The position numbers and the translations under genes are program-made. A stretch of DNA of 64,000 nt from Spirochaetia bacterium (GTDB taxonomy: Bacteria > Spirochaetota > Spirochaetia > WTKD01 > G963693115). The stretch is taken from the NCBI GenBank assembly GCA_965226055.1, contig CBDDCA010000006.1:32001-96000 (forward strand), given 5' to 3'. Every line of letters starts with the position of its first letter. Position 1 is the stretch's first letter. Shown piece after piece: positions 6,399 to 28,689 of the stretch. The notes beneath the pieces were generated by a model, which did not search any database, had not been told where the DNA came from, and saw nothing but the letters and a program-made list of their open reading frames with translations.

Positions 6399-7703
6399 AT
6401 GAAAAAAATATATCTTTCAATGGCTGGAGACATTATCCATCAAGGACATATCAATATTATTAAAGCTGCTACTAAACATGGAGAACTTATTGTAGGTTTG
6501 CTTTCTGATACTGTTATTGGCAACAATAAACGCATCCCTATTATGAATTTTGGACAACGAAAAGAAATAATTGAAAACATAAAAGGAGTAAGCCAAGTAA
6601 TAGAACAAAACAGTATTGAATACACCGATAACTTAGAGAAACTAAAACCAGAGTTTGTAATTCATGGGGATGATTGGAAAGTTGGAAAACAAGCATATAT
6701 TCGACAACAGGTAATTGAACAATTAAAGCAATGGAATGGGGAGCTTATAGAAATTCCATACACAGATGGTATCTCTAGTTCTTCAATAGAAGAGCTATTA
6801 CAAGAAAGAGGTGTAAGTGCAGGCGAAAGAAGAAAGCGTTTGCAGCTGCTTCTTTCCACTAAAAATATAGTAAGAGTACTTGAAGCACATAATGGGCTTA
6901 CGGGTCTTATAGTTGAAAAAACAGTGTTACAGGAACATGATGAACGAAAAGAGTTTGATGCTATGTGGATATCCAGCCTCTGTGATTCTACTGCAAAAGG
7001 AAAGCCTGATATAGAGCTTGTAGACTATACTTCGCGCATCAATACTATCAATGAAATTATTGAAGTGACAACAAAGCCAATCATCTTAGATGGTGATACG
7101 GGGGGACTTGTTGAGCATTTTGTATACAATGTCCGCACCTTAGAACGATTAGGCGTAAGTGCTATTATTATAGAAGATAAGGTAGGATTAAAAAAGAACA
7201 GCCTTTTTGGTACCGAAGCTGCCCAACAACAAGCTACTCCTGAAGAATTTGCTCATAAAATTCGTGCAGGAAAACAAGCACAGCTGGGAAACTCCTTTAT
7301 GATCATTGCAAGAATAGAATCGCTTATCCTTAAGCAAGGGATAGACGATGCATTACATCGTGCAAAAGTATATATTGAAGCAGGCACTGATGGAATTATG
7401 ATACATTCAAAAGAAAAAGATGGCAGTGAGATAAAAGAATTTTTACAACGATATAAACAAGAAGTTCCTCGTACAGTACCAGTAGTAGTAGTGCCTACCA
7501 CCTACAATCATATCACAGAACAAGAATTTTATGCTATGGGAGCAAACATAGTCATCTATGCAAATCACCTTATACGAAGTGCATATCTTGCCATGAAAGA
7601 AACTGCAGAAACTATTTTACGTAATGAACGCAGTGCAGAGGTAGACAAGCAATGTCTTCCAATTAAGGAAATACTTACCCTCATTCCACAAATAGTAGAT
7701 TAG
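6399..7703 (+). CDS. aepX: phosphoenolpyruvate mutase (PepM) with N-terminal cytidylyltransferase domain
   Basis: N-terminal HQGH and HGDDW cytidylyltransferase motifs. PepM motifs LEAHNG, DGDTGG, the diagnostic EDKxxxxxNS (EDKVGLKKNS), ARIES and IYANH. Confidence 0.96.
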   Translation: MKKIYLSMAGDIIHQGHINIIKAATKHGELIVGLLSDTVIGNNKRIPIMNFGQRKEIIENIKGVSQVIEQNSIEYTDNLEKLKPEFVIHGDDWKVGKQAYIRQQVIEQLKQWNGELIEIPYTDGISSSSIEELLQERGVSAGERRKRLQLLLSTKNIVRVLEAHNGLTGLIVEKTVLQEHDERKEFDAMWISSLCDSTAKGKPDIELVDYTSRINTINEIIEVTTKPIILDGDTGGLVEHFVYNVRTLERLGVSAIIIEDKVGLKKNSLFGTEAAQQQATPEEFAHKIRAGKQAQLGNSFMIIARIESLILKQGIDDALHRAKVYIEAGTDGIMIHSKEKDGSEIKEFLQRYKQEVPRTVPVVVVPTTYNHITEQEFYAMGANIVIYANHLIRSAYLAMKETAETILRNERSAEVDKQCLPIKEILTLIPQIVD

Positions 7704-12729: not shown

Positions 12730-13890
12730 ATGAAAAAGTCTCATTCACATGTTAGTAATAACATACAAAGAAATATATTGCTTAATCCAGGTCCTGCCAC
12801 TACCAGTGATACGGTAAAGTATGCTCAAGTAGTACCAGACATTTGTCCTCGTGAAGAAGAATTTGGAGCATTAGTACTCTGGATACAAGAACAGCTATGT
12901 ACATTTGTAGGAACAAAAGAAAATACACAATGTGTTCTTGTTGGCGGGAGTGGTACTGCTGCAGTGGAAATGGTCATTAGCAGTGTTATCCCTCAAAATT
13001 CTGCACTCATAGTCATAAACAATGGTGCTTATGCAGAACGTATTATAAAAATAGCGAGCATTTATCATATAGAGGTAATAGACTTTCCTTCTCCTACTGA
13101 TAAAGAAGTAGATTATACTGCACTTGAAGAATGCATCGTACATAACAAAAAATTGTTAGCACAAAAAAATAAAACCTTAAGTCACATGGCTGCAATACAC
13201 CATGAAACAACAAGTGGCTTACTTAACAACATGAAAAAACTTGGAAGCATATGTAACACTCATGCAATATCTCTCATATCAGATGCAATGAGTAGCTTTG
13301 CTGCTATTCCTATAGATATGGAATCAGATAACATAGAGTATGTTATTGCTTCTTCAAACAAGAATTTACAAGGAATGGCAGGTATTGGCATAGCACTTTG
13401 TAATACTGACGCTTTAGAAAATACAAAAACGATAGAAAAAAGAAATCTGTATCTCAATCTCTATGATCAATATTCTTACTTCTTAAAAACACGACAATTT
13501 AGATTTACTCCTCCTGTACAAACACTCTACGCAATGAAGCAAGCCATACAAGAATGCATCACAGAAGGGGTAGAAAACAGATACACCCGCTACCTTAACT
13601 CATATCAAATACTAAGACAAGGCATGCAATCTCTTGGGTTTCGTGTTCTTGTACCAGAAGAAATTTCATCTGGATTGATCACAACATTCTTTGAGCCAGA
13701 AGATACAAAATATAATTTTGATACGATGCATGATTATCTTTATGAAAAAGGATTTACCATTTATCCCGGAAAAATAAGTCAAGCTCATACATTTCGTTTA
13801 GCAAATATTGGAGACATATACAAAGAGGACATACACAATTTTCTGCATTGTCTAAAACAGTATTTACAGACATACAATATAAAAGTGTAA
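12730..13890 (+). CDS. aepZ: 2-aminoethylphosphonate aminotransferase (AepZ/PhnW family)
   Basis: LLNPGPATTS, GSGTAAVE, NNGAY, HHETTSG, DAMSSF, PLP lysine SSNKNLQG, RFTPP, GFTIYPGK. Confidence 0.92.
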   Translation: MKKSHSHVSNNIQRNILLNPGPATTSDTVKYAQVVPDICPREEEFGALVLWIQEQLCTFVGTKENTQCVLVGGSGTAAVEMVISSVIPQNSALIVINNGAYAERIIKIASIYHIEVIDFPSPTDKEVDYTALEECIVHNKKLLAQKNKTLSHMAAIHHETTSGLLNNMKKLGSICNTHAISLISDAMSSFAAIPIDMESDNIEYVIASSNKNLQGMAGIGIALCNTDALENTKTIEKRNLYLNLYDQYSYFLKTRQFRFTPPVQTLYAMKQAIQECITEGVENRYTRYLNSYQILRQGMQSLGFRVLVPEEISSGLITTFFEPEDTKYNFDTMHDYLYEKGFTIYPGKISQAHTFRLANIGDIYKEDIHNFLHCLKQYLQTYNIKV

Positions 13891-13899
13891 GCTGGTAAT

Positions 13900-14643
13900 T
13901 TATTTATATGCCATTTTTTTCACATAATCACAAATTCGCTGATAATCTTCTATAAAGTCAATTTCACTCCAAAATGTACCAGCAATATCAATAACAGAAA
14001 TAGGATGATCTTTATGTTCTACCAACGCAGATTCCCACCAAGTAGCATGCTGTCTTTGTTCTAACATAGCAGTCAACTGTACATACAATGTATGCACAAA
14101 ACTCTTAGGAATAAGCGCAACATCTACACTTTCTGCCATAGATACATGAGGAATATCTTTTCCATAGGCGTCTAAAACATTTTCTTGATTATAGGTAACC
14201 TTTACATCGGCAACATTCTTTCTGCTAGAATCTACAAGCAGTATTGGGTTTTCTGTTTTTTGTATAGCATCAAATGCCATACAAAAAATGCTTGTGTCCA
14301 AAAAAGTGTCTGCGTTCATAATTATGGTAGCCTCTGTCTCTTGTAAAAGAATATCCTTTGCAAACCACAGGGACCCTATTGAATTGACTATATAGTAAAA
14401 CGGATTATATATACACTGTACAGTTTCGTACTGAGAAAGACTGTCTTCTACTTTCTTATGCTTATATCCAGTAACTACTGTAATATGCGATATTCCCTGC
14501 TGTAACAAAGAATCAACTGTATATGCAATAAGAGGAATAGCATCTCTTTCCGATGTATGTATCGGCAACAAACATTTATGTTCTTGAGAAATATGCTGTG
14601 CTATTCGGCTACCAATTCCAGCAGCAAGCAAAATTGCTTTCAT
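13900..14643 (-). CDS. LicC/PntC-like nucleotidyltransferase (phosphocholine/phosphonate cytidylyltransferase family)
   Basis: MKAILLAAGIGSR, KCLL, VVTGY, YNPFY...NSIGSLW, MNAD, WSEIDFIEDY. Confidence 0.85.
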   Translation of the reverse strand: MKAILLAAGIGSRIAQHISQEHKCLLPIHTSERDAIPLIAYTVDSLLQQGISHITVVTGYKHKKVEDSLSQYETVQCIYNPFYYIVNSIGSLWFAKDILLQETEATIIMNADTFLDTSIFCMAFDAIQKTENPILLVDSSRKNVADVKVTYNQENVLDAYGKDIPHVSMAESVDVALIPKSFVHTLYVQLTAMLEQRQHATWWESALVEHKDHPISVIDIAGTFWSEIDFIEDYQRICDYVKKMAYK

Positions 14644-14704: not shown

Positions 14705-16036
14705 CTACGCTACCTGCTTTGCAATATCTACCAGTACCTCTGCACTCTTTTCCCCTGCTCTCCCTATATTGCATACAGCGTTGTCTCTCAATGCCTGTAT
14801 TGATGCTATGTACTGTTGCCGAGACGCTATCGTAGAATCAATAAGAGAAGGCAATTTCTGTATTTCGTCTGAGTGTATTACTGCCCCAAGCTGTTCAAGA
14901 ACATCTAGCTCCCAAGCGTTCCATGGAATATCATTTCCTTCCATACCTAACAATACAGGATGCGTGTTATGAGTAATGACAGGTTTTTCAAAAATAAAAG
15001 CAAAATCAAAAATGATACCGCTCCTATCAGAGATCAATACATCAGCATTCTGTAAAGAAGCAAAGTTATCGGCATTCATGTCCCATGTGATATTCGTATA
15101 CTCCTTAAATGTATGTTGCAAGTGTTCTATGAAATCACGTTCAACAAGCACACTCTGCGGATGAGGACGAATAATAATAGCATAATTACTCTCTATAAGC
15201 GACCGAAGCATCGTTTCTCCGCATATATTGAGCAGGCTTGATTGTCCCCATGTAGGAGCTACTAGTACAGTAGCTTGATGTTCCGTATCTTCTTTTCTTT
15301 GAGTATCATCTGTAATACTATTATTTTTACGATTCCATAGCTCATCCATGTATGTACATCCAACAAGATAACTTTGCTTTTTATGAGTATTGCGTAGCTC
15401 TTCAAGATGACGCAAAGATTTTTCCTGATGAGTACCACTCAATAGTAATGAATCATAAAAATCAAACGCAAACAATTTATACAAATGGAGATCAGTAGGA
15501 GCATGAATAATATGAGCATAATGCTTTACTTGTTTTGATCTACGAATTTGCAATACATCAAGATTAGGAGTAGTTAAGGCACATACATCTGCTTTCAATA
15601 AATTCAAATGAAAAAATGCCTTGTTCCCTTTTCCTATATACTTTGTATGTACCATTTCAGATTCAAATGTAAGCCCAGGATCTTCTTTATCAGAGCTAAG
15701 GTAGGTACATGAAATTCCTTGTGAATGAAACGCACGGAGTATGGGAGCAAAAGTATTCCAGTACTGTCCTCCTTCACTATAGAACACAATAGATTGAGTT
15801 GATGTCACACTTACATCAATATCCTCTTTTTTACGAAATATCCCTCGTATCATCATGAAAGATGTATACCATACACTGCGTATAACAAATATCAAAGTAG
15901 ATACTATGCCAACTACAACAGCAAGCAACATACTTCCTGTTCCAGGATCAAGGTATGCATACAAGGGCTGTGTATACACAAGCAAAAACATAAAAATAGC
16001 TATTACTCTATACTGTGTAAAAATTTTCTTCTTCAT
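14705..16036 (-). CDS. CDP-glycerol:glycerophosphate transferase (TagB/TagF) family protein with N-terminal YLDPGTGS membrane segment
   Basis: VLVAPTWG, IIRPHPQS, ADVLISDRSGIIFDFAF..KPVI. Start placed at ATG 16036 after AGGAG; the ORF track begins at 16078. Confidence 0.82.
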   Translation of the reverse strand: MKKKIFTQYRVIAIFMFLLVYTQPLYAYLDPGTGSMLLAVVVGIVSTLIFVIRSVWYTSFMMIRGIFRKKEDIDVSVTSTQSIVFYSEGGQYWNTFAPILRAFHSQGISCTYLSSDKEDPGLTFESEMVHTKYIGKGNKAFFHLNLLKADVCALTTPNLDVLQIRRSKQVKHYAHIIHAPTDLHLYKLFAFDFYDSLLLSGTHQEKSLRHLEELRNTHKKQSYLVGCTYMDELWNRKNNSITDDTQRKEDTEHQATVLVAPTWGQSSLLNICGETMLRSLIESNYAIIIRPHPQSVLVERDFIEHLQHTFKEYTNITWDMNADNFASLQNADVLISDRSGIIFDFAFIFEKPVITHNTHPVLLGMEGNDIPWNAWELDVLEQLGAVIHSDEIQKLPSLIDSTIASRQQYIASIQALRDNAVCNIGRAGEKSAEVLVDIAKQVA

Positions 16037-16059
16037 ATACAATAGTATACTCCTTTTTA

Positions 16060-19000
16060 TTATTTTACTTTTTTCCAATTCTTTTGTTCAAACATAGTAT
16101 CTGTTACTATATATTTATCTTTTATTGGAAAAGAATTTTTTGTCCGTAGCATTTCTTCCCAACCCAACAAGGGGGTTATGTAGCTCACAAGCTCTCTTCC
16201 TTCCTGTTGTCCTTGTGTAGGATCTGGTATTATTGTATCGGGACGACTAAAATCTTCAATACCATGAAAAGCAATGCTTGCTGTATCGGCATTACTCATA
16301 AAACGATTATCAACGCTAAGAGGATCAGTACTACCAATATCTTTTACCATAAGTAGTGCATGTAATAAAAAAAACACATCATCTCCTTGACGTCCAAATG
16401 AAATAGGAGCAACATTGTTGATATTCATAGGATCACTTTGTCCTGTTGTTGAATGATCAGACACAAGTATTATTTTCGTATTATCGTATATATTATTTTC
16501 TTTCAGCCAATGAAACCATGTACCAAGTGACATGAGTGTACACTTTAAAGTATCATAGATGCCATCATCTTTAGCATCTGGAGTTTCATAGTATAAAACC
16601 TTACAATCAGGGCCTAAGCTATACGGAGAATGCGTAATATGAGTATGTAAAAATGTAAATGTCCCATGTTGCTCTTGCTTTTTAACTTGCTGTTCGTCTC
16701 TTACATTTGATAGATATGAAAGTGAATCTACAAAAGACCAATCTCTTAATGTTGAGAAATACACATCACGATAGCTTTTTTGTAAAAGGCCATGCCATTT
16801 TTCATCATCATATATCATTCTTCTAAAAGTAATAGGAACAGAACGGAGTAAACTTGCTAATAGAAACAAGGAAGTTTTTTCTTTTGTTGTTTTTGCAACT
16901 AATGCAGTACTACGCGATATAACACTATCATAGAGTTGTTTTTGTTCAGGATGCCTTTCTAACCAAGGGCTTTGATAACTTTCAATTATTTCATTTTTTT
17001 CTATACATATTACCTTTTTTTTACGAACACCAGCACAACCTTCATTTTGCTCCTTTCCATAAAAAGAAAGACCAAAATGTCCCACCTGATACTTATAAGA
17101 TTGAAATGTATCTATCATAGTATCATGAGCAGCAGTAAACTTTTGTGCTACATTCTTCCCTTCTATATCTACTATATTCTCAGGAGTAAACTGCCATCCT
17201 CCCATCATTGAAGGCTTGCTTGCAGTGGTATTATTGCCAATACTAAGGGTATTAGGATACCATGTAAATCCACGATATATTTCCGCTAACTGTGGAACTT
17301 CTTCTAACACACGTTGTACTAATCCTCCATTTGCCATATCCAATAAAATGACCACTATGTTCCGTTTCTCTTTTGAAAAAGAGAGTAGCTGAGAAGGAAA
17401 TGTTTCCGCTACTGTTATACCATTATTCTCATCCTTTCCTTGCAACACTATAGATGTATTTTCTCTTCCCATGTAATATCTACTGTACCATCCACTAAAA
17501 TCTACAATTCTTACTAATACTAATCCCAAACACAGCGTTGCTACAATACTTATTATCCCTATCTTTTCCATCACTACACGATACAGCACCAGTATAAATA
17601 CAGTAAGAGCAATCCCTTCTGCCATATACATAAAAACAGTCAAAGTCAACCTCTCTGGAAAAAACAATATGAAGTGATCCATTTTTCCCATATCAAAAGG
17701 AACAAATACACTGTACAGTAACAACAAACCTAATACAAGTATACAGATAAATGCTACCTGTCGTTTTATTCTCTTTGGAACAAGCATATACAATAGTACA
17801 GGAGCTACTATCATCCCTAGCATAATCCATATTGTATTCTTTACTATATCTGTAAACAATATCCTCACATCATCAGGAGAGCTCCTATACAATTCTGCTG
17901 GAAGCTGTATGCATATAAGCAATGCTACTGTTATGCTTAGCACTAACAAGGTATACACTCCCCATTTTTGTTTTCCTTGATGTATTCTTTTTACTGAGAT
18001 ACTTTGCTGCTTCTTAGTAGTAAAAGCTACCAAAGATATAAAATACGGAAATAGTACCCCATTCATACTTACGAGTAATGCAAATGATACTAATTTTATA
18101 ATATATACACTTCTCGTTATATCTTCATCTGGTATATAAAAATAATAGAGTAGCAACAGCATACCAATACTCATGCTTATACAGAAAAGCATTCCTATTA
18201 TATTTTTCTTTCTCTTACTTTTAGTATTCTTACAGTATGACAATAGTAATATACAAGCACTCACTACCAATATTGTTATAGCTATTCCCAAGATTGTATT
18301 AGGTACTGCTAATCTTAAATGTCCTTCTGGTATCAATAAAAATGACAAACATATGTACCCTGCAAATATCCATGCAATGACAACAGTGTTTACTACTTTC
18401 TTATCATTTTCTATAAAAGATGTTATTTTCTGTTTTATAATGCGATAAGTACTCTCCTGCTTTCCACTATAATTTTGTTGTGCATTTTTTTGTAATCGAT
18501 GTGCTAACACAATATTCTTTAGCAGTGTAAATACATTGTTACAAGTCCAGTACAGCACTAATCCCGATGGCATAGCATATAACAACACAAAAAATATCAA
18601 TGCCATATTCCATGCTGACATTAAGGAGTTTGGATCTACTCTTCGCGTGTACACATTTGCTGCCATAATATTTATTGCAGTCATAATAAAAGGAAGCACA
18701 TTGATACGATAGCGACCAAACGGAAACAACGCATCTGCTTTTGACAGATCTTCAATGAATAAAAACGAAACTCCTTCCAGTGCAGTAAAATCCCTTAACA
18801 TATGATATGCCGCAAAGAAAAATGGTATTTGTATAAGCAAAGAGCCTATAGACCGTAAGCCCAGCACAGGATGATACTTATGCAGCCGATATAAACTTTG
18901 TATCATCATAAACCGCTCTTGTCCTTGAAAGCTCTGCTTAATTTCATCTAACTTTGCTTGCATGGACTGTCGCTGTAATAATTCCTTTTTTTGTAAGCGT

Positions 19001-19146
19001 TCTGCCAGCATATACACAGGCAACAATAGAAGTGAAATAAAGAAACTTAACAGAACAATGGCATATCCATAATTATGCGAAAATTGATACAAGAATAGAA
19101 AGATATATTCTAAAAAAGACTCCAGAATAGAAAAAAACGAAAGCAT
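16060..19146 (-). CDS. YidC/Oxa1-like domain + multi-TM + sulfatase/LtaS-like domain fusion (copy D, divergent body)
   Basis: N-terminal NYGYAIVLL..LLLP, LLIQIPFFFAAY, DLSKAD, MPSGLVLYWT. C-terminal NIVVILLD, PNTLS...T, THSPY, YDNTKIILVSDH. Confidence 0.85.
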   Translation of the reverse strand: MLSFFSILESFLEYIFLFLYQFSHNYGYAIVLLSFFISLLLLPVYMLAERLQKKELLQRQSMQAKLDEIKQSFQGQERFMMIQSLYRLHKYHPVLGLRSIGSLLIQIPFFFAAYHMLRDFTALEGVSFLFIEDLSKADALFPFGRYRINVLPFIMTAINIMAANVYTRRVDPNSLMSAWNMALIFFVLLYAMPSGLVLYWTCNNVFTLLKNIVLAHRLQKNAQQNYSGKQESTYRIIKQKITSFIENDKKVVNTVVIAWIFAGYICLSFLLIPEGHLRLAVPNTILGIAITILVVSACILLLSYCKNTKSKRKKNIIGMLFCISMSIGMLLLLYYFYIPDEDITRSVYIIKLVSFALLVSMNGVLFPYFISLVAFTTKKQQSISVKRIHQGKQKWGVYTLLVLSITVALLICIQLPAELYRSSPDDVRILFTDIVKNTIWIMLGMIVAPVLLYMLVPKRIKRQVAFICILVLGLLLLYSVFVPFDMGKMDHFILFFPERLTLTVFMYMAEGIALTVFILVLYRVVMEKIGIISIVATLCLGLVLVRIVDFSGWYSRYYMGRENTSIVLQGKDENNGITVAETFPSQLLSFSKEKRNIVVILLDMANGGLVQRVLEEVPQLAEIYRGFTWYPNTLSIGNNTTASKPSMMGGWQFTPENIVDIEGKNVAQKFTAAHDTMIDTFQSYKYQVGHFGLSFYGKEQNEGCAGVRKKKVICIEKNEIIESYQSPWLERHPEQKQLYDSVISRSTALVAKTTKEKTSLFLLASLLRSVPITFRRMIYDDEKWHGLLQKSYRDVYFSTLRDWSFVDSLSYLSNVRDEQQVKKQEQHGTFTFLHTHITHSPYSLGPDCKVLYYETPDAKDDGIYDTLKCTLMSLGTWFHWLKENNIYDNTKIILVSDHSTTGQSDPMNINNVAPISFGRQGDDVFFLLHALLMVKDIGSTDPLSVDNRFMSNADTASIAFHGIEDFSRPDTIIPDPTQGQQEGRELVSYITPLLGWEEMLRTKNSFPIKDKYIVTDTMFEQKNWKKVK

Positions 19147-19150
19147 AGTA

Positions 19151-22100
19151 TTATTGTACCTTGTTCCAGTTCTTTAGTTCAAATATAGTATCGCTAACAG
19201 TATATTTATTTTTTATCTTAAATTGTTTCTTCTCTTTTATTAAATCTACCCAATTATAAAATTCAGTATGATATATTGGCACTGTTCTATCAGGTACTAA
19301 TTGCTTTGCATAATCAATTTTGTCAAAGGCATGTGCATCACTGGGAGGAACATACCTCTCTATGCTATGGTACATCATTGCTGCCGTATCAACATTACTC
19401 ATCAACCTTGTATCTATACTAAACGCATTGTTTTGATTAAAATCTTTTACTAATAACAGAGCATGTACACGGGTAAACACATGTGGATAATCTATCCCTA
19501 ATAACTCAGAGCTTATGTTGTTACTATTCATATAATCACTATAAAAATTACCTCCATGATCAGATACTATAATGATTTTTGTATTATCATATACATTATG
19601 CTCCTGCAACCATGTAAACCACTGTGTGAGTGATTCTATGCTACATCGAAAGGAAAAATAGGCAGAGTTTCCAGTATAGTTATTCTTTACATCTTCATCA
19701 GGAAATTCCTTATTTTGTAACCTACAGTGTTTATCAAGAGCATACGGTTGATGAGTAACAGAATTGTGTATAAATGTAAATGTTCCTGAAATATCCTCCA
19801 TTGAATATGTTTCCCTATCATCTTCTAAACGAGAAGAAGTACTTTGTAAAGAATCAAGCACTGCCCATTCTTTTATTGCATGCCTATATCCAATTTGATT
19901 CTTAAATTCAGAGTCACTCAAATTCCAATTTCCAAGATCATATACCGCATATTTCATCATCACTGGCACTGAGCGTAGTACCCCTGTCAATATCAGCAAT
20001 ACAATATTTCTCTCTGAAAGAGAAATGTCTATTTCTTTCTGCTGTTCTCTATTATTCTGTTTCCAATAACTCACAAAAGAATCATCCCAATAATCAAGAC
20101 AGGCAATATCCTGCTTTTCCAGATCCTTACACTGAGCATACTGTCCCTTATAGTACAAGCTACCAGTCATTCGTATCAGATAATTATATCGCTTAAAGCG
20201 AGAAAACATAGTATCATAGGCTCCCACTACTTTTTCCGCAAGATTGTCCCCTTTAATATCAACAATATTTTCAGGAGTATAGTTCCAGCCTGCCATCATA
20301 GCTGGCACACTTGTACTTGTATAGGCAGAAACACTGAGCGTATTAGGATACCATGTAAATCCTTTTAAGCGTTCTTTTATATTAGGCCTCTCATCTAAGA
20401 CCCGTTGCATATCACCACCATTTGCCATATCAAGCAACACCACCACTATATTTTGCTTTGTAGAAGAAAAAGAAAATAAACGATCAGCAATACGAGGAAC
20501 AGAAACATCTTGTGCATCTCCACTCTCCACTCCTGATGAGGCATCTTGCTTGTATGCCTCCGATATTCGTGCTACCACAGCATCATTTTGCAACCACAGC
20601 CCAAAATCAACCAACATATATGTAAACACTCCATTGACTGCCACTAACACAGTAATTATTATTTTTCTATTGTTACTATTCTTTAAAAAAGAAAATATCC
20701 AAAAACAAAAACATATCAAAGCTATCCCCTCTAATACATATATACTAACACGAGGCGAGAGAGATTGCGGTGACATTAAAATAAAATGATCAAGCCCTCC
20801 TATATCAAAAGGAATAACTAATGCGTATAACAATACTACAGACGATAGCACAAATACAATACAACTCACGTAGTTCTTTACTCTATACGGACAGCATATC
20901 CATATAAGCATAGGAATAACTATACTTGCTATAATATACGGCAACACATATATCAGTACAGCAGTAAACGACACAGATACAGACACAGGATCACTTTTAT
21001 ATATCTCTGCAGGAAGCACTAAAAAAATAAGCAAAGCAACAGCACCACTGCTTGCTAGCAGGATATACCACCACTGTCTTAGCTCTGCTTTCCTTTTAAG
21101 AAAGACAGCAGAGGACTCTGTATATGTATGCGATAAACGATATAACACAGACACCACATAAGGAAACAACACGGCGTTAGGAAAAATAAGAATAGCAAAG
21201 GCACTTAGCTTAAACAGTATAGCATCCCTATCTATCATAAACACTGGAAGCTGAATATAATAATATATCATAGCAGATCCAATGATCATACATGCAACAC
21301 TCCCAAAAAAAATGCTATACTTTACAATAGAAATACTATACACACGAGGAGCATTCTTACTGTTATAGTGTTTAGTATCATGCTGAAACTTTTTCTGTAA
21401 CTTTTCTTTATGTATCTGCTTTCGATAAAAATACAATAAAAGAATACTTTCACTTATCACCATTGCAACGATAGCAATTCCTAACAAAGTATTTGGTACT
21501 TCCCCTCTCAATCTATTTACTAAACGGAGCATATACGCAAGCACTAAATATCCACCAAACAACCACAGAAAGAATACAACCTTTATCACCTTTCTATCGT
21601 TCTCTATAAACATAAGTAATTTCTTTTGTATAATCTGCCAAGCACTCTCTTCTTTGTTTTTATTCTTTTGTAAACGAAGCGATAATATAATATTCTTTAG
21701 CAGTGTAAACACATTATTACAAGTCCAATACAGCACTAATCCCGATGGCATAGCGTACAACAACACAAAAAATACCAATGCCATATTCCATGTTGACATT
21801 AAGGAGTTCGGATCTACTCTTCGCGTGTACACATTTGCTGCCATAATATTTATTGCAGTCATAACAAAAGGAAGCATATTGATACGATAGCGACCAAACG
21901 GAAACAACGCATCTGCTTTTGACAGATCTTCAATAAATAAAAACGAAACTCCTTCCAGTGCAGTAAAATTCCTTAGCATATGATATGCCGCAAAGAAAAA
22001 TGGTATTTGTATAAGCAACGACCCTATAGACCGTAAGCCCAGCACAGGATGATACTTATGTAGCCGATACAAACTTTGTATCATCATAAACCGCTCTTGT

Positions 22101-22324
22101 CCTTGAAAGCTCTGCTTAATTTCATCTAACTTTGCTTGCATGGACTGTCGCTGTAATAATTCCTTTTTTTGTAAGCGTTCTGCCAGCATATACACAGGCA
22201 ACAATAGGAGAGAAATAAAGACACTTAACAGAACAATAGCATATCCATAATTATGCGAAAATTGATACAAGAATAGAAAGATATATTCTAAAAAAGACTC
22301 CAAAGGAGAAAGAAATGATGCCAT
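19151..22324 (-). CDS. YidC-like/sulfatase-like fusion (copy C)
   Basis: Same architecture; NIVVVLLD, YTSTSVP, THQPY, IVSDHG. Confidence 0.85.
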   Translation of the reverse strand: MASFLSPLESFLEYIFLFLYQFSHNYGYAIVLLSVFISLLLLPVYMLAERLQKKELLQRQSMQAKLDEIKQSFQGQERFMMIQSLYRLHKYHPVLGLRSIGSLLIQIPFFFAAYHMLRNFTALEGVSFLFIEDLSKADALFPFGRYRINMLPFVMTAINIMAANVYTRRVDPNSLMSTWNMALVFFVLLYAMPSGLVLYWTCNNVFTLLKNIILSLRLQKNKNKEESAWQIIQKKLLMFIENDRKVIKVVFFLWLFGGYLVLAYMLRLVNRLRGEVPNTLLGIAIVAMVISESILLLYFYRKQIHKEKLQKKFQHDTKHYNSKNAPRVYSISIVKYSIFFGSVACMIIGSAMIYYYIQLPVFMIDRDAILFKLSAFAILIFPNAVLFPYVVSVLYRLSHTYTESSAVFLKRKAELRQWWYILLASSGAVALLIFLVLPAEIYKSDPVSVSVSFTAVLIYVLPYIIASIVIPMLIWICCPYRVKNYVSCIVFVLSSVVLLYALVIPFDIGGLDHFILMSPQSLSPRVSIYVLEGIALICFCFWIFSFLKNSNNRKIIITVLVAVNGVFTYMLVDFGLWLQNDAVVARISEAYKQDASSGVESGDAQDVSVPRIADRLFSFSSTKQNIVVVLLDMANGGDMQRVLDERPNIKERLKGFTWYPNTLSVSAYTSTSVPAMMAGWNYTPENIVDIKGDNLAEKVVGAYDTMFSRFKRYNYLIRMTGSLYYKGQYAQCKDLEKQDIACLDYWDDSFVSYWKQNNREQQKEIDISLSERNIVLLILTGVLRSVPVMMKYAVYDLGNWNLSDSEFKNQIGYRHAIKEWAVLDSLQSTSSRLEDDRETYSMEDISGTFTFIHNSVTHQPYALDKHCRLQNKEFPDEDVKNNYTGNSAYFSFRCSIESLTQWFTWLQEHNVYDNTKIIIVSDHGGNFYSDYMNSNNISSELLGIDYPHVFTRVHALLLVKDFNQNNAFSIDTRLMSNVDTAAMMYHSIERYVPPSDAHAFDKIDYAKQLVPDRTVPIYHTEFYNWVDLIKEKKQFKIKNKYTVSDTIFELKNWNKVQ

Positions 22325-22328
22325 AGTA

Positions 22329-25300
22329 TTATTTTATCCTTTTCCAGTTCTTTAGTTCAAATATAGTATCGCTAACAGTATATTTATTTTTTATCTTAAA
22401 TTGTTTCTTCTCTTTTACAAACCCCACCCAATTATAAAATTCAGTATGATATATTGGCACTGTTCTATCAGGTACTAACTGCTTTGCATAATCAATTTTG
22501 TCAAAGGCATGTGCATCACTGGGAGGAACATATCCCTCTATACTATGGTACATCATTGCTGCCGTATCAACATTACTCATCAATCTTGTATCTATACTAA
22601 ACGCATTGTTTTGATTAAAATCTTTTACTAATAACAGAGCATGTGCACGAGGAAACATATATGAAAAATCTGTCCCTAACAACTCAGAGCTTATGTTGTT
22701 ACTATTCATATAATCTCTATAACCATTACCTCCATGATCAGATACTATAATGATTTTTGTATTATCATACATAGCATGCTCCTGCAACCATGCGAACCAT
22801 TGTGTGAGTGATTCTATGCTACATCGAAAGGAAAAATACGCAGAGTTTCCAGCATAGTTATTTTCTATATTTTCATCAGGAAATTCCTTATTTTGTAACA
22901 CACAGTGTTTATCAAGAGCATAGGGACGATGCGTAATATTATTGTGTATAAATGTAAATGTTCCTGCACTGTCCTCCATTGAGTATGTTTCTCTATCATC
23001 TTCTAAACGAGAAGAAGTACTTCGTAAAGAATCAAGTACTGCCCATGATTTTAATGCATACCTATATCCTTCTTGATTCTTAAATTCAGAGGTATTTATA
23101 TTCCAATTTCCATGATCATATACCGCATATTTCATCATCACGGGCACTGAGCGTAGTACCCCTGTCAATATCAGCAATACAATATTTCTCTCCGAAAAAG
23201 ATACATCTGTCTCTGCCTGTTGTTCTCTATTATTCTGTTTCCAATAACTCACAAAAGAATCATCCCAATAATCAAGACAGGCAATATCCTGCTTTTCCAG
23301 ATCCTTACACTGAGCATTATCTCCTCCGAGGTATGATACACCAGACATTCGCATCAAATAATTATATTGCTTAAAGCGAGAAAACATAGTATCGTATGCT
23401 CCCACTACTTTTTCCGCAAGATTTTCCCCTTTTAATATTACCATATTTTCAGGAGTATAGTTCCACCCTGCTATCATAGCTGATATACTTGCACCCGTAT
23501 AGGTAGAAACACTGAGCGTATTAGGATACCAAGTAAATCCTTTTAAGCGTTCTTTTATATTAGGCCTCTCATCTAAGACCCGTTGCATATCACCACCACT
23601 TGCCATATCAAGCAACACCACCACTATATTTTGCTTTGTAGAAGAAAAAGAAAATAAACGATCGGCAATACGAGGAACAGAAACATCTTGTGTATCTCCA
23701 TTCTCCATTCCCGATGTAGCATCTTGCTTTTGTGCATCTGATACTTGTGCTACCACAGCATCATTTTGCAACCACAGCCCAAAATCAACCAACATATATG
23801 TAAACACTCCATTGACTGCCACTAACACAGTAATTATTATTTTTCTATTGTTACTATTCTTTAAAAAAGAAAATACAAAAAAACAAAAGCATATCAGAGC
23901 TATCCCCTCTAATACATATATACTAGCACGAGGCGAAAGAGATTGCGGTGACATTAAAATAAAATGATCAAGCCCTCCTATATCAAACGGAACAACTAAT
24001 GCGTATAACAATACTACAGACGATAGCACAAACACAATACAACTCACGTAGCTCTTTACTCTATACGGACAGCATATCCATATAAGCATAGGAATAACTA
24101 TACTTGCTATAATATACGGCAACACATATATCAGCACAGCAGTAAACGATACAGATACTGATATAGGATCACTTTTATATATCTCTGCAGGAAGCACTAA
24201 AAAAATAAGCAAAGCAACAGCACCACTGCTTGCTAGCATGATATACCACCACTGTCTTAGCTCTGCTTTCCTTTTAATAAGCATAGTAGGAGTCTTTGCA
24301 TGTATCCCTGTATACTGTAAACGATATAACACATAAGGAAACAGCACTGCGTTAGGAAAAATCGTAATAGCAAAGGCACTTAGCTTCAACAATACAGTGT
24401 CAACATTTATCATGAACACTGGAAGCTGAATATAATAATACATCATAGCAGATCCAATGATCATACATGCAACACTCCCAAAAAAGAGGCTATACTTTAC
24501 AATAGAAGTACTATACACACGAGGAGCATTCTTACTGTTATAATGTTTAGTATCATGCTGAAACTTTTTCTGTAACTTTTCTTTATGTATCTGCTTCCGA
24601 TAAAAATACAATAGAAGAATACTTTCACTTATCACCATCGCAACGATAGCAATTCCTAACAAAGTATTTGGTACTTCCCCTCTCAATCTATTTACTAAAC
24701 GGAACACATACGCAAGTACTAAATATCCACCAAACAACCACAGAAAGAATACAACCTTTATCACCTTTCTATCGTTCTCTATAAATATAAGTAATTTCTT
24801 TTGTATAATCTGCCAAGCACTCTCTTCTTTGTCTTTATTCTTTTGTAAACGAAGCGATAATACAATATTTTTTACGAAGGCAAATATATTATTACAAGTC
24901 CAATACAGCACTAATCCCGATGGCATAGCATATAACAACACAAAAAATATCAATGCCATATTCCATGCTGATACTAAGGATTTTGGATCTACTCTTCGTG
25001 TGTACACATTTGCTGCCATGATATTTATTGCAGTCATAATAAAAGGAAGCATATTGATACGATAGCGACCAAACGGAAACAACGCATCTGCTTTTGAGAG
25101 ATCTTCAATGAATAAAAACGAAACTCCTTCCAGTGCAGTAAAATTCCTTAACATATGATATGCCGCAAAGAAAAATGGTATTTGTATAAGCAACGACCCT
25201 ATAGACCGTAAGCCCAGCACTGGATGATACTTATGTAGCCGATACAAACTTTGTATCATCATAAACCGCTCTTGTCCTTGAAAGCTCCCTTTAATTTCAT

Positions 25301-25499
25301 CTAACTTTGCTTGCATGGACTGTCGCTGTAATAATTCCTTTTTTTGTAAGCGTTCTGCCAGCATATACACAGGCAACAATAGGAGTGAAATAAAGAAACT
25401 TAACAGAACAATAGCATATCCATAATTATGTGAAAGCTGATACAAAAATATAAAGATATATTCTAAAAAAGACTCCAAAGGAGAAAAAAATGATGCCAT
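22329..25499 (-). CDS. YidC-like/sulfatase-like fusion (copy B)
   Basis: Same architecture; YTGASIS, THRPY, IVSDHG. Confidence 0.85.
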   Translation of the reverse strand: MASFFSPLESFLEYIFIFLYQLSHNYGYAIVLLSFFISLLLLPVYMLAERLQKKELLQRQSMQAKLDEIKGSFQGQERFMMIQSLYRLHKYHPVLGLRSIGSLLIQIPFFFAAYHMLRNFTALEGVSFLFIEDLSKADALFPFGRYRINMLPFIMTAINIMAANVYTRRVDPKSLVSAWNMALIFFVLLYAMPSGLVLYWTCNNIFAFVKNIVLSLRLQKNKDKEESAWQIIQKKLLIFIENDRKVIKVVFFLWLFGGYLVLAYVFRLVNRLRGEVPNTLLGIAIVAMVISESILLLYFYRKQIHKEKLQKKFQHDTKHYNSKNAPRVYSTSIVKYSLFFGSVACMIIGSAMMYYYIQLPVFMINVDTVLLKLSAFAITIFPNAVLFPYVLYRLQYTGIHAKTPTMLIKRKAELRQWWYIMLASSGAVALLIFLVLPAEIYKSDPISVSVSFTAVLIYVLPYIIASIVIPMLIWICCPYRVKSYVSCIVFVLSSVVLLYALVVPFDIGGLDHFILMSPQSLSPRASIYVLEGIALICFCFFVFSFLKNSNNRKIIITVLVAVNGVFTYMLVDFGLWLQNDAVVAQVSDAQKQDATSGMENGDTQDVSVPRIADRLFSFSSTKQNIVVVLLDMASGGDMQRVLDERPNIKERLKGFTWYPNTLSVSTYTGASISAMIAGWNYTPENMVILKGENLAEKVVGAYDTMFSRFKQYNYLMRMSGVSYLGGDNAQCKDLEKQDIACLDYWDDSFVSYWKQNNREQQAETDVSFSERNIVLLILTGVLRSVPVMMKYAVYDHGNWNINTSEFKNQEGYRYALKSWAVLDSLRSTSSRLEDDRETYSMEDSAGTFTFIHNNITHRPYALDKHCVLQNKEFPDENIENNYAGNSAYFSFRCSIESLTQWFAWLQEHAMYDNTKIIIVSDHGGNGYRDYMNSNNISSELLGTDFSYMFPRAHALLLVKDFNQNNAFSIDTRLMSNVDTAAMMYHSIEGYVPPSDAHAFDKIDYAKQLVPDRTVPIYHTEFYNWVGFVKEKKQFKIKNKYTVSDTIFELKNWKRIK

Positions 25500-25503
25500 A
25501 GCA

Positions 25504-28500
25504 TTATTGTACCTTATTCCAGTTCTTTAGTTCAAATATAGTATCGCTAACAGTATATTTATTTTTTATCTTAAATTGTTTCTTCTCTTTTACAAAATCT
25601 ACCCAATTATAAAATTCAGTATGATATATTGGCACTGTTCTATCAGGTACTAATTGCTTTGCATAATCAACTTTGTCAAAGGCATGTGCATCACTGGGAG
25701 GAACATATCCCTCTATGCTATAGTACATCATTGCTGCTGTATCAACATTACTCATCAACCTTGTATCTATACTAAACGCATTGTTTTGATTAAAATCTTT
25801 TACTAATAACAGAGCATGTGCACGGGTAAACATATATGGATAATCTATCCCTAATAACTCAGAGCTTATGTTGTTACTATTCATATAATCTCTATAACCA
25901 TTACCTCCATGATCAGATACTATAATGATTTTTGTATTATCATACATAGCATGCTCCTGCAACCATGCAAACCATTGTGTGAGTGATTCTATGCTACATC
26001 GAAAGGAAAAATACGCAGAGTTTCCAGCATAGTTATTTTCTATATTTTCATCAGGAAATTCCTTATTTTGTAACCTACAGTGTTTATCAAGAGCATAGGG
26101 ACGATGCGTAATATTATTGTGTATAAATGTAAATGTTCCTGCAATATCCTCTGTTGAATATGTTTCCCTACCATCTTCTAAATGAGAAGAAGTACTTCGT
26201 AAAGAATCAAGTACTGCCCATTCTTTTAATGCCCACCTATATCCATCTTGATTCTTAAATTCAGAGGTATTCATATTCCAATTTCCACGATCATATATCA
26301 CATTTTTCATCATCACTGGCACTGAGCGTAGTACCCCCGCCATTATCAACAACGAAATAGTTCTCTCTGAAAAAGATATATCTGTCTCTCTCTGCTGTTC
26401 TCTATTATTTTGTTTCCAATAACTCATAAAAGAATCATCCCAATAATCAAGACAGACAATATCCTGCTTTTCCAGATCTTTACATTGAGCATTATCTCCT
26501 CCATAGTATAATACACCAGTCATTCGTATCAGATAATTATATCGCTTAAAGAGAGAAAACATAGTATCGTATGCTCCCACTACTTTTTCCGCAAGATTTT
26601 CCCCTTTAACATCAATAATATTTTCAGGAGCATAGTTCCAGCCTGCCATCATAGCTAGTTTACTTGCACTCGTATAGGTAGAAACACTGAGCGTATTAGG
26701 ATACCAAGTAAATCCTTTTAAGTGTTCTTTTATACTAGGTCTCTCATCTAATATCCGTTGCATATCACCACCATTTGCCATATCAAGCAACACCACCACT
26801 ATATTTTGCTTTGTAGAAGAGAAAGAAAATAAACGATCAGCAATACGAGGAACAGAAACATCTTGTGTATCTCCATTCTCCATTCCCGATGTAGCATCTT
26901 GCTTTTGTGCATCTGATACTTGTGCTACCACAGCATCATTTTGCAACCACAGCCCAAAATCAACCAACATATATATAAACACTCCATTGACTGCCACTAA
27001 CACAGTAATTATTATTTTTCTATTGTTACTATGTTTCAAAAAAGAAAATATCCAAAAACAAAAACATATCAGAGCTATCCCTTCTAATACATATATACTA
27101 GCACGAGGCGAAAGAGATCTCGGTGACATTAAAATAAAATGATCAAGCCCCCCTATATCAAACGGAACAACTAATGCGTATAACAATACTACAGACGATA
27201 GCACAAACACAATACAACTCACGTAGCTCTTTACTCTATACGGACAGCATATCCATATAAGCATAGGAATAACTATACTTGCTATAATATACGGCAACAC
27301 ATATATCAGCACAGCAGTAAACGATACAGATACTGAGGTAGGATCACTTTTATATATCTCTGCAGGAAGCACTAAAAAAATAAGCAAAGCAACAGCACTA
27401 CTGCTTGCTAGCAGGATATACCACCACTGTCTTACTGCAACTTTCTCTTTAAGAAAAACACCAGACGCCTTTGCCTTTCTATACTGTAAACGATATAACA
27501 CATACACCACATAAGGAAACAGTACTGCGTTAGGAAAAATAAGAATAGCAAAAGATCGTAGCTTAAACCATACAGCATCAATATCTATCATGGACACTGG
27601 AAGTTGAATATAATAATATATCATAACAGATCCAATGATCATACATGCAACACTCCCAAAAAAAATGCTATACTTTACAATAGAAGTACTGTACACATGA
27701 GGAACATTCTTACTGTTATAGTGTTTAGTATCATGCTGAAACTTTTTCTGTAACTTTTCCTTATATATCTGCTTTCGATAAAAATACAATAGAAGAATAC
27801 CTTCACTTATCACCATTGCAACGATAGCAATTCCTAACAAAGTATTTGGCACTTCCCCTCTCAATCTATTTACTAAACGGAGCACATACGCAAGCACTAA
27901 ATATCCACCGAACAACCACAGAAAGAATACAACCTTTATCACCTTTCTATCGTTCTCTATAAACATAAGTAATTTCTTTTGTATAATCTGCCAAGCACTC
28001 TCTTCTTCTTTGTCTTTATTCTTTTGTAAACGAAGCGATAACACAATATTTTTTACGAAGGCAAATATATTATTACAAGTCCAATACAGCACTAATCCTG
28101 ATGGCATAGCGTACAACAACACAAAAAATATCAATGCTATATTCCATGTTGACATTAAGGAGTTTGGATCTACTCTTCGCGTATACACATTTGCTGCCAT
28201 AATATTTATTGCAGTCATAACAAAAGGAAGCACATTGATACGATAGCGACCAAATGGCAGCAACGCATCTGCTTTTGACAGATCTTCAATAAATAAAAAC
28301 GAAACTCCCTCCAGTGCAGTAAAATCCCTCAACATATGATATGCCGCAAAGAAAAATGGTATTTGTATAAGCAACGACCCTATAGAACGCAACCCCATCA
28401 CCGGATGATACTTATGCAGCCGATACAAACTTTGTATCATCATAAACCGCTCTTGTCCTTGAAAGCTCCCTTTAATTTCATCAAGCTTCTTTTTCATAGC

Positions 28501-28689
28501 CTGTTGCTTAAAAAGCTCCTGTTTCTGCAACTTTTCTGCTATCATATACACAGGCAAAAGTATACTATTTACAATGATACTTAACAAAATGATAGAAACT
28601 CCATAGTTATTTGAAATACTATACGAAAAAGTAAAAAGATACTGCAAGAATATTTCAAAAGGAGAAAAAATAGCTGCCATACTACCCAT
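25504..28689 (-). CDS. YidC-like/sulfatase-like fusion (copy A)
   Basis: Same architecture; distinct first ~70 aa; YTSASKL, THRPY, IVSDHG. Confidence 0.85.
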   Translation of the reverse strand: MGSMAAIFSPFEIFLQYLFTFSYSISNNYGVSIILLSIIVNSILLPVYMIAEKLQKQELFKQQAMKKKLDEIKGSFQGQERFMMIQSLYRLHKYHPVMGLRSIGSLLIQIPFFFAAYHMLRDFTALEGVSFLFIEDLSKADALLPFGRYRINVLPFVMTAINIMAANVYTRRVDPNSLMSTWNIALIFFVLLYAMPSGLVLYWTCNNIFAFVKNIVLSLRLQKNKDKEEESAWQIIQKKLLMFIENDRKVIKVVFFLWLFGGYLVLAYVLRLVNRLRGEVPNTLLGIAIVAMVISEGILLLYFYRKQIYKEKLQKKFQHDTKHYNSKNVPHVYSTSIVKYSIFFGSVACMIIGSVMIYYYIQLPVSMIDIDAVWFKLRSFAILIFPNAVLFPYVVYVLYRLQYRKAKASGVFLKEKVAVRQWWYILLASSSAVALLIFLVLPAEIYKSDPTSVSVSFTAVLIYVLPYIIASIVIPMLIWICCPYRVKSYVSCIVFVLSSVVLLYALVVPFDIGGLDHFILMSPRSLSPRASIYVLEGIALICFCFWIFSFLKHSNNRKIIITVLVAVNGVFIYMLVDFGLWLQNDAVVAQVSDAQKQDATSGMENGDTQDVSVPRIADRLFSFSSTKQNIVVVLLDMANGGDMQRILDERPSIKEHLKGFTWYPNTLSVSTYTSASKLAMMAGWNYAPENIIDVKGENLAEKVVGAYDTMFSLFKRYNYLIRMTGVLYYGGDNAQCKDLEKQDIVCLDYWDDSFMSYWKQNNREQQRETDISFSERTISLLIMAGVLRSVPVMMKNVIYDRGNWNMNTSEFKNQDGYRWALKEWAVLDSLRSTSSHLEDGRETYSTEDIAGTFTFIHNNITHRPYALDKHCRLQNKEFPDENIENNYAGNSAYFSFRCSIESLTQWFAWLQEHAMYDNTKIIIVSDHGGNGYRDYMNSNNISSELLGIDYPYMFTRAHALLLVKDFNQNNAFSIDTRLMSNVDTAAMMYYSIEGYVPPSDAHAFDKVDYAKQLVPDRTVPIYHTEFYNWVDFVKEKKQFKIKNKYTVSDTIFELKNWNKVQ

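Follow-up and report, generated by a model that had tools for sequence, protein, structure and literature searches.

Four tandem genes on the minus strand of a Spirochaetia bacterium genome each encode a protein that begins with a YidC-like membrane module and ends in what resembles an envelope transferase. They lie within the 64,000-nucleotide (nt) stretch analyzed here, hereafter the window (assembly GCA_965226055.1, contig CBDDCA010000006.1, positions 32,001 to 96,000), and coordinates given without a contig or locus name are window positions. Copy A (25504-28689; 1061 amino acids, aa) consists of the YidC-like module, nine further transmembrane (TM) helices, and an LtaS/EptA-type ectodomain. 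The same architecture recurs in copy B (22329-25499; 1056 aa) and copy C (19151-22324; 1057 aa), and copy D (16060-19146; 1028 aa) likewise carries the YidC-like module at its N-terminus. All four are intact open reading frames (ORFs) without internal stops, and the gaps between neighbors measure 4 nt. In copy A, the module spans residues ~1-225 (nt 28015-28689) and the ectodomain residues ~615-1061. Every copy matched the Pfam family PF02096 at 86.1-90.3 bits against a cut-off of 35, while copies A and D, the two that were scanned further, matched TIGR03592 at 91.5 and 94.1 bits, respectively (cut-off 84.3). In that same scan of copies A and D, the full-length YidC equivalog models were not reached, the best score being 86.5 bits against a cut-off of 891. 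A preliminary description of this DNA had claimed that the YidC motifs are retained and that the large periplasmic P1 domain is missing, which the ORF translations bear out: the motifs YGVSIILLSIIVNSILLPV, YGYAIVLLSxFISLLLLPV, LLIQIPFF, PSGLVLYW, and IGSL were all found in the window copies, and only ~27 residues precede the first core helix of copies A-D, which leaves them without a P1 domain.

In the same description, the position of the groove arginine of YidC had been read as Asn for copy A and as Ser for the other three copies, and this reading held in an alignment to structure chains. In phmmer comparisons with the E. coli YidC chains 4utq and 3wvf (E ~5e-13), the first core helix aligned without gaps and R366 faced N41 of copy A, which is encoded by AAT at 28567-28569. 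The corresponding residue is S38 in copy B (TCA, 25386-25388), copy C (TCT, 22211-22213), and copy D (TCA, 19033-19035), all codons being on the minus strand. A word-indexed search with copy A returned 568 matches, and the best 120 of these were nearly all 850-1070 aa long and bore PF02096. Using MAFFT, we aligned 121 family proteins (the 4 window copies and 117 of these matches) together with the canonical YidC of the same genome; the latter has Arg in the R366 column, while the family proteins have Asn (45), Ser (41), Thr (31), Gly (2), or Gln (2). With the 231-aa module as query, an exhaustive HMMER search covering 1.84 billion representatives produced 9031 matches with E<=1e-3, 1022 of them with E<=1e-30, and 140 further representatives showed 86 Asn, 34 Ser, 15 Thr, 3 Cys, 1 Gly, and 1 Gln in this column. 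Lys or Arg was found there in 0 of these 261 family proteins. Among 53 shorter matches, 42 align at the R366 column, with 23 Asn, 10 Ser, 4 Thr, 1 Tyr, and Lys or Arg in just four of the weakest; two of these four (P0165 and P0175) also carry PF14849, the YidC periplasmic-domain family. Judging from these alignments, the loss of the arginine is a trait of the whole family and not of this locus alone. The family comprises at least 1000 clusters at 50% identity and is found in Spirochaetota, Clostridia, Erysipelotrichia, Desulfovibrionaceae, Bacteroidota, Verrucomicrobia, and Proteobacteria.

It should be noted that the four window copies were rejected as independent witnesses of this loss, as their YidC modules are homogenized at the DNA level; hence, the family is the stronger evidence. 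The module of copy D shares 93-94% aa and 94% DNA identity with those of copies B and C (19 synonymous and 13 non-synonymous differences), whereas beyond the module the identity is 35-42%, with the break at ~nt 650. Across copies B, C, and D (16060-25499), the modules are 93-95% identical in DNA, synonymous and non-synonymous differences being roughly equal in number, and the identity between C and D falls to background exactly at the module end. The pattern of identities resembles gene conversion or module swapping that affects the YidC part alone.

The positive residue of the groove is described as strictly conserved across YidC homologues (PMC8920935), and its role is debated. E. coli YidC is reported to tolerate the loss of R366 (PMC4252904; PMC8920935), the R366A mutant being merely cold-sensitive (PMC4252904) and the arginine being dispensable if residue 517 is aromatic or polar (PMC8920935). 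In the Arg-less family, the equivalent of residue 517 is an invariant Trp. Because E. coli YidC tolerates the loss of R366, the missing arginine does not by itself show that insertase activity has been lost. One could also suppose that the modules are simply extra YidC paralogues of the SpoIIIJ/YqjG kind that were fused by chance, with the arginine lost through neutral drift, since many bacteria have two YidC paralogues and the R366A phenotype is so mild. Drift is difficult to reconcile with a column in which Lys or Arg is absent from all 261 proteins while a specific alternative signature has become fixed.

That signature is evident at the remaining groove positions. The groove of E. coli YidC is formed by T362, R366, T373, Q429, T474, S520, N521, and Q527, and its helices are kinked at P371 and P431 (Kumazaki 2014, PMC4252904). 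According to the phmmer alignment, the equivalents in copy A are S37 (T362), N41 (R366), Y48 (T373), Q109 (Q429), N206 (S520), N207 (N521), and K213 (Q527), and both kink prolines are present as P46 and P111. The equivalent of T474 is ambiguous, as phmmer and MAFFT place it one residue apart in the third core helix. S37, Q109, N206, N207, K213, P46, and P111 are each at least 90% conserved in the Arg-less family, in which T204 is also nearly invariant. Further near-invariant polar positions among the 140 representatives are T159 (140), N162 (136), W203 (140), N206 (139), and N207 (135). All four copies have Lys at the Q527 position (minus strand; K213 of copy A, 28051-28053; K210 of copies B, 24870-24872, C, 21695-21697, and D, 18517-18519), and 139 of the 140 representatives have Lys or Arg there. 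A second basic residue, R101 of copy A (28387-28389, minus strand), is located at the cytoplasmic end of the second core helix, eight residues ahead of Q109 and within a three-residue extension of that helix; Lys or Arg occupies this position in 130 of the 140. From the alignments, the groove appears to have lost its central charge and gained polarity, with positive charge shifted toward its cytoplasmic mouth. The idea that no Arg or Lys aligns in the groove, on which the preliminary description had staked its claim, thus survives only in part: none is found at the R366 position, yet K213 occupies the Q527 position and R101 is present as well.

The fold of the module is that of YidC. An AF2 model of residues 1-231 (pLDDT 86.5, pTM 0.79) shows an outside N-terminus and five TM helices, with C1 forming a coiled-coil hairpin in the cytoplasm. 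The top 12 Foldseek matches of this model in the PDB were all YidC or Oxa1L-containing entries, including E. coli 6al2 at E 3e-8. TM-scores to solved YidC structures ranged overall from 0.58 to 0.69, with B. halodurans YidC2 (3wo6/3wo7) reaching 0.64-0.69 (for 3wo7, TMq 0.65-0.67 at a root-mean-square deviation of 3.1-3.3 Å). A full-length model built from the 121-sequence alignment (pLDDT 85.8, pTM 0.70) contains 14 TM helices, five in the module and nine following it, and a C-terminal alpha/beta domain. The latter is placed outside the cytoplasm since the N-terminus is outside, the Lys/Arg-rich C1 and post-TM5 segments are inside, and 5 + 9 helices follow one another; the loops of the membrane part also agree with the positive-inside rule. 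A complete YidC fold with a polar groove would suit a cis-acting insertase or assembly chaperone as well, in which case the module would insert or fold its own nine-helix block and ectodomain, or the TM anchor of the partner enzyme described below. An N-terminal tail and 14 TM helices do require an insertion route, and the invariant Trp satisfies the rule by which the arginine is dispensable in E. coli with an aromatic or polar residue 517 (PMC8920935).

The C-terminal domain belongs to the sulfatase fold. The four copies matched PF00884 (Sulfatase) at 28.5, 30.5, 31.1, and 46.4 bits against a cut-off of 25, and Foldseek with the full-length model retrieved sulfatases, LtaS, EptA, and PbgA at E ~1e-6, the alignments covering 653 columns for full-length EptA (5fgn) and 738 columns for PbgA (6xlp). 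At the sequence level, a single-sequence phmmer search of the PDB with the C-terminal 638 aa found nothing, and a family profile of the C-terminal part detected LtaS at E 1e-4. Across 121 sequences, D636, T673, H862, D926, and H927 do not vary. For comparison, the catalytic residues are E255/T300/D475/H476 in LtaS and E488/T530/D711/H712 in GacH. The Pfam model expects such residues at the positions of D636, T673, D926, and H927, and the putative first metal ligand is Asp where LtaS and GacH have Glu. An invariant Thr instead of Cys or Ser points to a phosphotransferase of the LtaS/EptA type, as judged by analogy. In LtaS and GacH, a lipid donates the head group, which passes through a Thr intermediate (bioRxiv 10.1101/337519), and by the same analogy we infer that a membrane lipid would be the head-group donor of the ectodomain.

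The genome from which the window derives (2.25 Mb, 89% complete) contains six PF02096 matches, namely the four window copies, a fifth fused copy on contig C4, and a canonical yidC. The preliminary description had raised the prospect of a separate canonical yidC near rnpA and jag, and such a gene is indeed there: it encodes a protein of 585 aa (168 bits) with both Arg and a P1 domain (PF14849) and is located between rnpA (Ribonuclease_P) and jag (Jag_N/R3H), so the genome does have another yidC. The four window genes do not share this gene order, being instead part of a phosphonate/TagF-like operon. Immediately upstream of rnpA-yidC-jag is an IS-type (insertion sequence) transposase with HTH_38 and an rve integrase core (L077:4364-5329, contig C6). 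Because the canonical gene does that job, general insertion is not expected of the modules, and its presence also argues against the cis-acting insertase described above. We know of no other polytopic enzyme family that carries its own insertase, which we count against that explanation too. The fifth fused copy (L078:7629-11893) has 984 aa, Ser at the R366 position, and no PF00884 match; the four PF00884 matches of the genome are all fused proteins of this family. Directly upstream of the fifth copy, and overlapping it by 4 nt, is its own TagF-like gene. An LtrA-family gene lies just upstream of this pair, and flagellar rod genes followed by FliF and FliG lie just downstream. The genome has two TagF-like genes in total, and both adjoin fused genes.

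The TagF-like gene of the window (14705-16078, minus strand) matches PF04464 at 43.3 bits against a cut-off of 22.1 and encodes a transferase with an N-terminal TM anchor. The ORF as listed overlaps copy D by 19 nt; its start is probably the ATG at 16036. Across 45 sequences of this TagF-like family, R290, P291, H292, P293, and Q294 are invariant, constituting an RPHPQS-type motif, and a likewise invariant YxDPGxGS motif is located just ahead of the single TM anchor. We know of no described function for the latter motif. No NCBIfam model matched in a scan of the TagF-like partner. The top 120 TagF-like homologues are all stand-alone proteins, and PF04464 was found in 0 of 21 mid-length module representatives, so neither set contained a direct YidC-TagF fusion. 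The four paralogues in the window share this one TagF-like partner and nearly one YidC module, while their ectodomains have diverged, which suggests four different acceptors.

We then considered how widely the module and the TagF-like gene travel together. A neighborhood survey based upon one genome per species and at least 704 confirmed matches retained 70 loci, whose 822 neighboring ORFs were clustered. The loci come from Spirochaetia, Leptospirales, many Clostridia, Erysipelothrix, Desulfovibrionaceae, Sutterella, Neptunomonas, Verrucomicrobia, and Bacteroidota. The flanks of 40/70 loci contain a TagF-like gene, in 36 cases as an immediate neighbor on the same strand, while 34/70 loci have two or more fused copies, with a maximum of seven. 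We also examined 81 genomes of the phylum, including that of the window. The module profile scores were bimodal, with at least 194 bits in 8 of the 81 genomes versus 150 bits or less for canonical YidC. The TagF-like subfamily scored at least 490 bits in exactly the same eight genomes, which are related to one another and hence not independent counts, and which span four taxonomic families; its next best score was 63 bits, and all 73 negatives agreed. Neither the bimodal scores nor this perfect co-occurrence would be expected of ordinary extra paralogues fused by chance, and together with the absence of Lys and Arg they leave that explanation very improbable.

Other combinations of the same parts were found as well. 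In three loci (L011, L012, and L018), the YidC-like, TagF-like, and ectodomain parts are three separate genes, and in two others (L022 and L033) one gene encodes a stand-alone YidC-like protein of 229-232 aa and the next a TagF-TM-ectodomain fusion of ~1000 aa. In all five loci, the stand-alone modules carry Lys at position 213, and wherever the R366 position was readable (all but L033) it is Asn. In L022, a Clostridiales metagenome-assembled genome, two tandem pairs, each a stand-alone YidC-like gene and then a TagF-ectodomain fusion, adjoin a gene (L022:9991-11997) for a 669-aa phosphoenolpyruvate (PEP) mutase with two nucleotidyltransferase domains, NTP_transf_3 and CTP_transf_like. The split modules remain separate genes that always travel with TagF-like and ectodomain genes, which is difficult to reconcile with an insertase acting in cis.

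The TagF-like protein is also predicted to bind the module directly. When residues 1-545 of copy D were modeled together with the TagF-like protein, the predicted complex received a score of 0.67, and the best of three controls scored 0.00. As a rough guide, since our own alignments were used, 116 of 157 solved complexes attain this mark, compared with 2 of 215 mismatched pairs. Contacts agreed by at least 68% between runs, the pLDDT of the partner was at least 74, and the predicted interface consists of residues 68-88 at the tip of the C1 hairpin of copy D and TagF-like residues 160-163, 188-192, 215-217, and 363-368. The model supports binding of the TagF-like enzyme to the C1 hairpin. In the ribosome-bound YidC of 5m5h and the membrane-associated mitoribosome of 9olf, this hairpin is linked to the ribosome; its predicted occupancy by the TagF-like enzyme would be a further argument against a cis-acting insertase, which we consider unlikely overall. 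The docking does raise the question of whether the module is only a scaffold, that is, an anchor whose C1 hairpin holds the TagF-like enzyme beside the outward transferase while the groove transports nothing. The sole direct interaction evidence, itself in silico, concerns the hairpin and not the groove, and several fusion combinations are expected of the subunits of one complex. A pure anchor, however, needs neither kink prolines nor a polar cavity, and the most conserved positions of the family are the equivalents of the membrane-embedded polar groove (N162, N206, N207, T159, K213, and Q109), with the C1 hairpin being less conserved than these. We therefore assign only a small probability to a scaffold without transport.

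The remaining genes of interest in the window concern phosphonates. A phosphonopyruvate decarboxylase (5265-6395, plus; TIGR03297, 383 bits versus 312.5), a PEP mutase with an N-terminal cytidylyltransferase-like domain (6399-7703, plus; TIGR02320, 404 bits versus 319.55), and a 2-aminoethylphosphonate aminotransferase (12730-13890, plus; TIGR03301, 392 bits versus 360.8) all score above their NCBIfam equivalog cut-offs. These are joined by a LicC/PntC-like nucleotidyltransferase (13900-14643, minus; NTP_transf_3), which probably makes the cytidine monophosphate-linked form of 2-aminoethylphosphonate (CMP-AEP), a role inferred from the work of Rice et al. (PMC6697681). The gene set fits the nucleotide-activation logic of phosphonate tailoring outlined in the same paper. 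Directly upstream of the decarboxylase gene is a spore-photoproduct-lyase-like radical SAM gene (4187-5197, plus; PF20903) that falls far under the NCBIfam equivalog cut-offs and may be a tailoring enzyme of the cluster. The phosphonate genes are interrupted by a 1571-aa ORF (7789-12504, minus) with three Fn3 domains and DUF285 repeats. Its region has a GC content of 42-43.5% versus 33-36% in the surroundings and a strong AT skew of -0.32 to -0.43. A large surface protein is the probable product, and it might be an acceptor of decoration. In the neighborhood survey, phosphonate marker genes are present in 25/70 loci. EamA-like small membrane proteins of 111-124 aa were found in six of the 70 loci each (L056:9216-9590, L023:14003-14338, and four other loci each); in some Treponema loci they adjoin glycosyltransferase family 2 (GT2) genes and may be a separate ArnE/F-like flippase pair of another decoration system.

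Overall, we think it likely that the modules are not general insertases but dedicated subunits of a three-part machine that moves head groups to the envelope. The preliminary description had proposed an insertase fold repurposed for something else; the link to TagF-like and LtaS-type enzymes and the predicted docking at C1 strengthen that proposal, although its original argument, the missing arginine, is insufficient on its own to prove that insertase function was lost. The parts of such a machine, their genomic association, and their predicted docking come from the analyses above, and upon these the proposed mechanism would build a lipid intermediate, its flipping, and an acceptor. The TagF-like enzyme, cytoplasmic and anchored in the membrane, would dock on the C1 hairpin beneath the groove and load a nucleotide-activated head group onto a lipid of the inner leaflet. 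At this locus, the head group would be 2-aminoethylphosphonate from CMP-AEP, given the adjacent Ppm, Ppd, transaminase, and cytidylyltransferase genes. The YidC-like groove, centrally uncharged and strongly polar, would then lower the barrier for passage of the head group to the outer leaflet in a scramblase-like manner, after which the Thr of the LtaS/EptA-type domain would accept the head group and hand it on to a surface acceptor. E. coli YidC, Oxa1, and Get1 have been reported to scramble lipids in vitro (PMC11047089), which offers a precedent, by analogy, for a scramblase-like role of the module. For the full chain, in which an arginine-less polar groove passes a lipid-linked head group outward, we put the chances a little short of even, its basis being computational. 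Wider in scope and held more tentatively is the notion that a whole Oxa1/YidC clade is no longer an insertase and serves as the head-group translocase of a synthesize-flip-transfer machine for phosphonate or phosphate groups, which would amount to LicD-independent phosphonyl tailoring.

Several observations weigh against this interpretation. Insertase activity may persist in the modules, given that E. coli YidC works without R366, and according to the alignments K213 and R101 keep the mouth of the groove positively charged. TagF-type enzymes normally act on the glycan or glycerol hydroxyls of lipid-linked polymers, and the TagF-like enzyme could for this reason complete the decoration inside the cell without any flipping. 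Conservation at the predicted interface is hardly above background for the TagF-like protein (0.62 versus 0.52) and not above it for the C1 region (0.50 versus 0.53). No TagF-like gene was found in the fetched flanks of 30/70 loci, though many of these contigs are short, and no phosphonate marker genes were found in 45/70. Within the genome of the window, no phosphonate gene lies anywhere near the fifth copy on contig C4. The EamA-like proteins of 6/70 loci could also be separate flippases.

The position of the fifth copy directly upstream of flagellar rod genes is one reason to consider a protein-modifying station, in which the module would engage nascent membrane or secreted proteins and the ectodomain would add 2-aminoethylphosphonate or phospho head groups to them. 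Sulfatase-type transferases that act on proteins do exist, as exemplified by PptA and EptC, which modify pilin and flagellar proteins. Among the clustered neighbors of the 70 loci, however, there is no conserved protein-substrate gene, and with the TagF-like enzyme docked at C1 as predicted, a nascent chain or ribosome would face competition for binding there. We give this explanation very little credence, and the head-group machine described above remains our preferred reading.

Our literature search found no description of a YidC-transferase fusion or of an Arg-less module. YidC was also unmentioned in two phosphonate surveys by term look-up, which covered the articles but not their supplements, and the latter might list such genes; one of the two surveys does describe Selenomonas clusters with multiple sulfatases. 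A large natural clade in which the arginine is replaced, the charge is moved to the mouth of the groove, and the fold is tied to envelope enzymes instead of ribosomes constitutes a natural experiment on groove function, and it may reveal a physiological use for the recently reported scramblase activity of insertases. It also offers a concrete candidate for the step by which bacterial surfaces acquire 2-aminoethylphosphonate, a step called enigmatic by Rice et al. 2019 (PMC6697681). As spirochaetes and Firmicutes of the gut, rumen, and mouth commonly carry the system, it probably shapes the surface chemistry met by hosts and phages.

Compared with the YidC/Oxa1/Alb3 proteins (E. coli 3wvf/6al2 and B. 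halodurans 3wo6/3wo7), the modules share the five-helix core, an EH1-like amphipathic N-terminal helix, the C1 coiled coil, the kink prolines, and the polar groove residues, and their profile scores are above curated cut-offs. They differ by having Asn, Ser, or Thr in place of the arginine, Lys at Q527, and Arg or Lys before the second core helix. They have no P1 domain, signal peptide, or lipobox and are located outside the rnpA-yidC-jag context, being fused to or encoded beside envelope transferases, with a hairpin predicted to bind one such enzyme. With LtaS/LtaP/GacH, EptA/MCR-1, and PbgA, the window proteins share a polytopic N-terminal part, an extracytoplasmic sulfatase-fold domain, the invariant Thr, and a putative Asp-His metal pair. 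They have more helices than the five of LtaS, as does GacH with 11 TM helices (bioRxiv 10.1101/337519). Sequence similarity to LtaS, EptA, and PbgA is very weak, however, and the putative first metal ligand is Asp instead of Glu; moreover, the window proteins carry a YidC module and depend upon a TagF-like partner, neither of which is known for those enzymes. The partner resembles the TagF/TarF CDP-glycerol glycerophosphotransferases in its PF04464 domain, its invariant RPHPQS-type motif, and its cytoplasmic, membrane-associated location, and it presumably also uses a CMP-linked donor, which here would probably be CMP-AEP and not CDP-glycerol. Unlike them, it has its own TM anchor and the YxDPGxGS motif, and in the 81-genome sample its subfamily was found only in genomes with the Arg-less module.

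The logic proposed here is also that of ArnC/ArnE-ArnF/ArnT and CsbB/GtcA/YfhO, in which a lipid is loaded in the cytoplasm, a small protein flips it, and an outward polytopic transferase uses it. Those systems handle sugars on undecaprenyl phosphate by means of GT-A/GT-C enzymes and GtrA- or SMR-like flippases, whereas the present one would handle a phosphonate or phosphate head group by means of TagF- and LtaS-type enzymes, with a YidC fold as the proposed flipping element. Finally, LicD-type phosphotransferases share the use of CMP/CDP-activated head groups, supplied by LicC/PntC-type enzymes, for surface glycans (PMC6697681). The scanned genes of the window included no LicD-like gene, and relative to LicD the TagF-like/YidC-LtaS pair would represent a different route.

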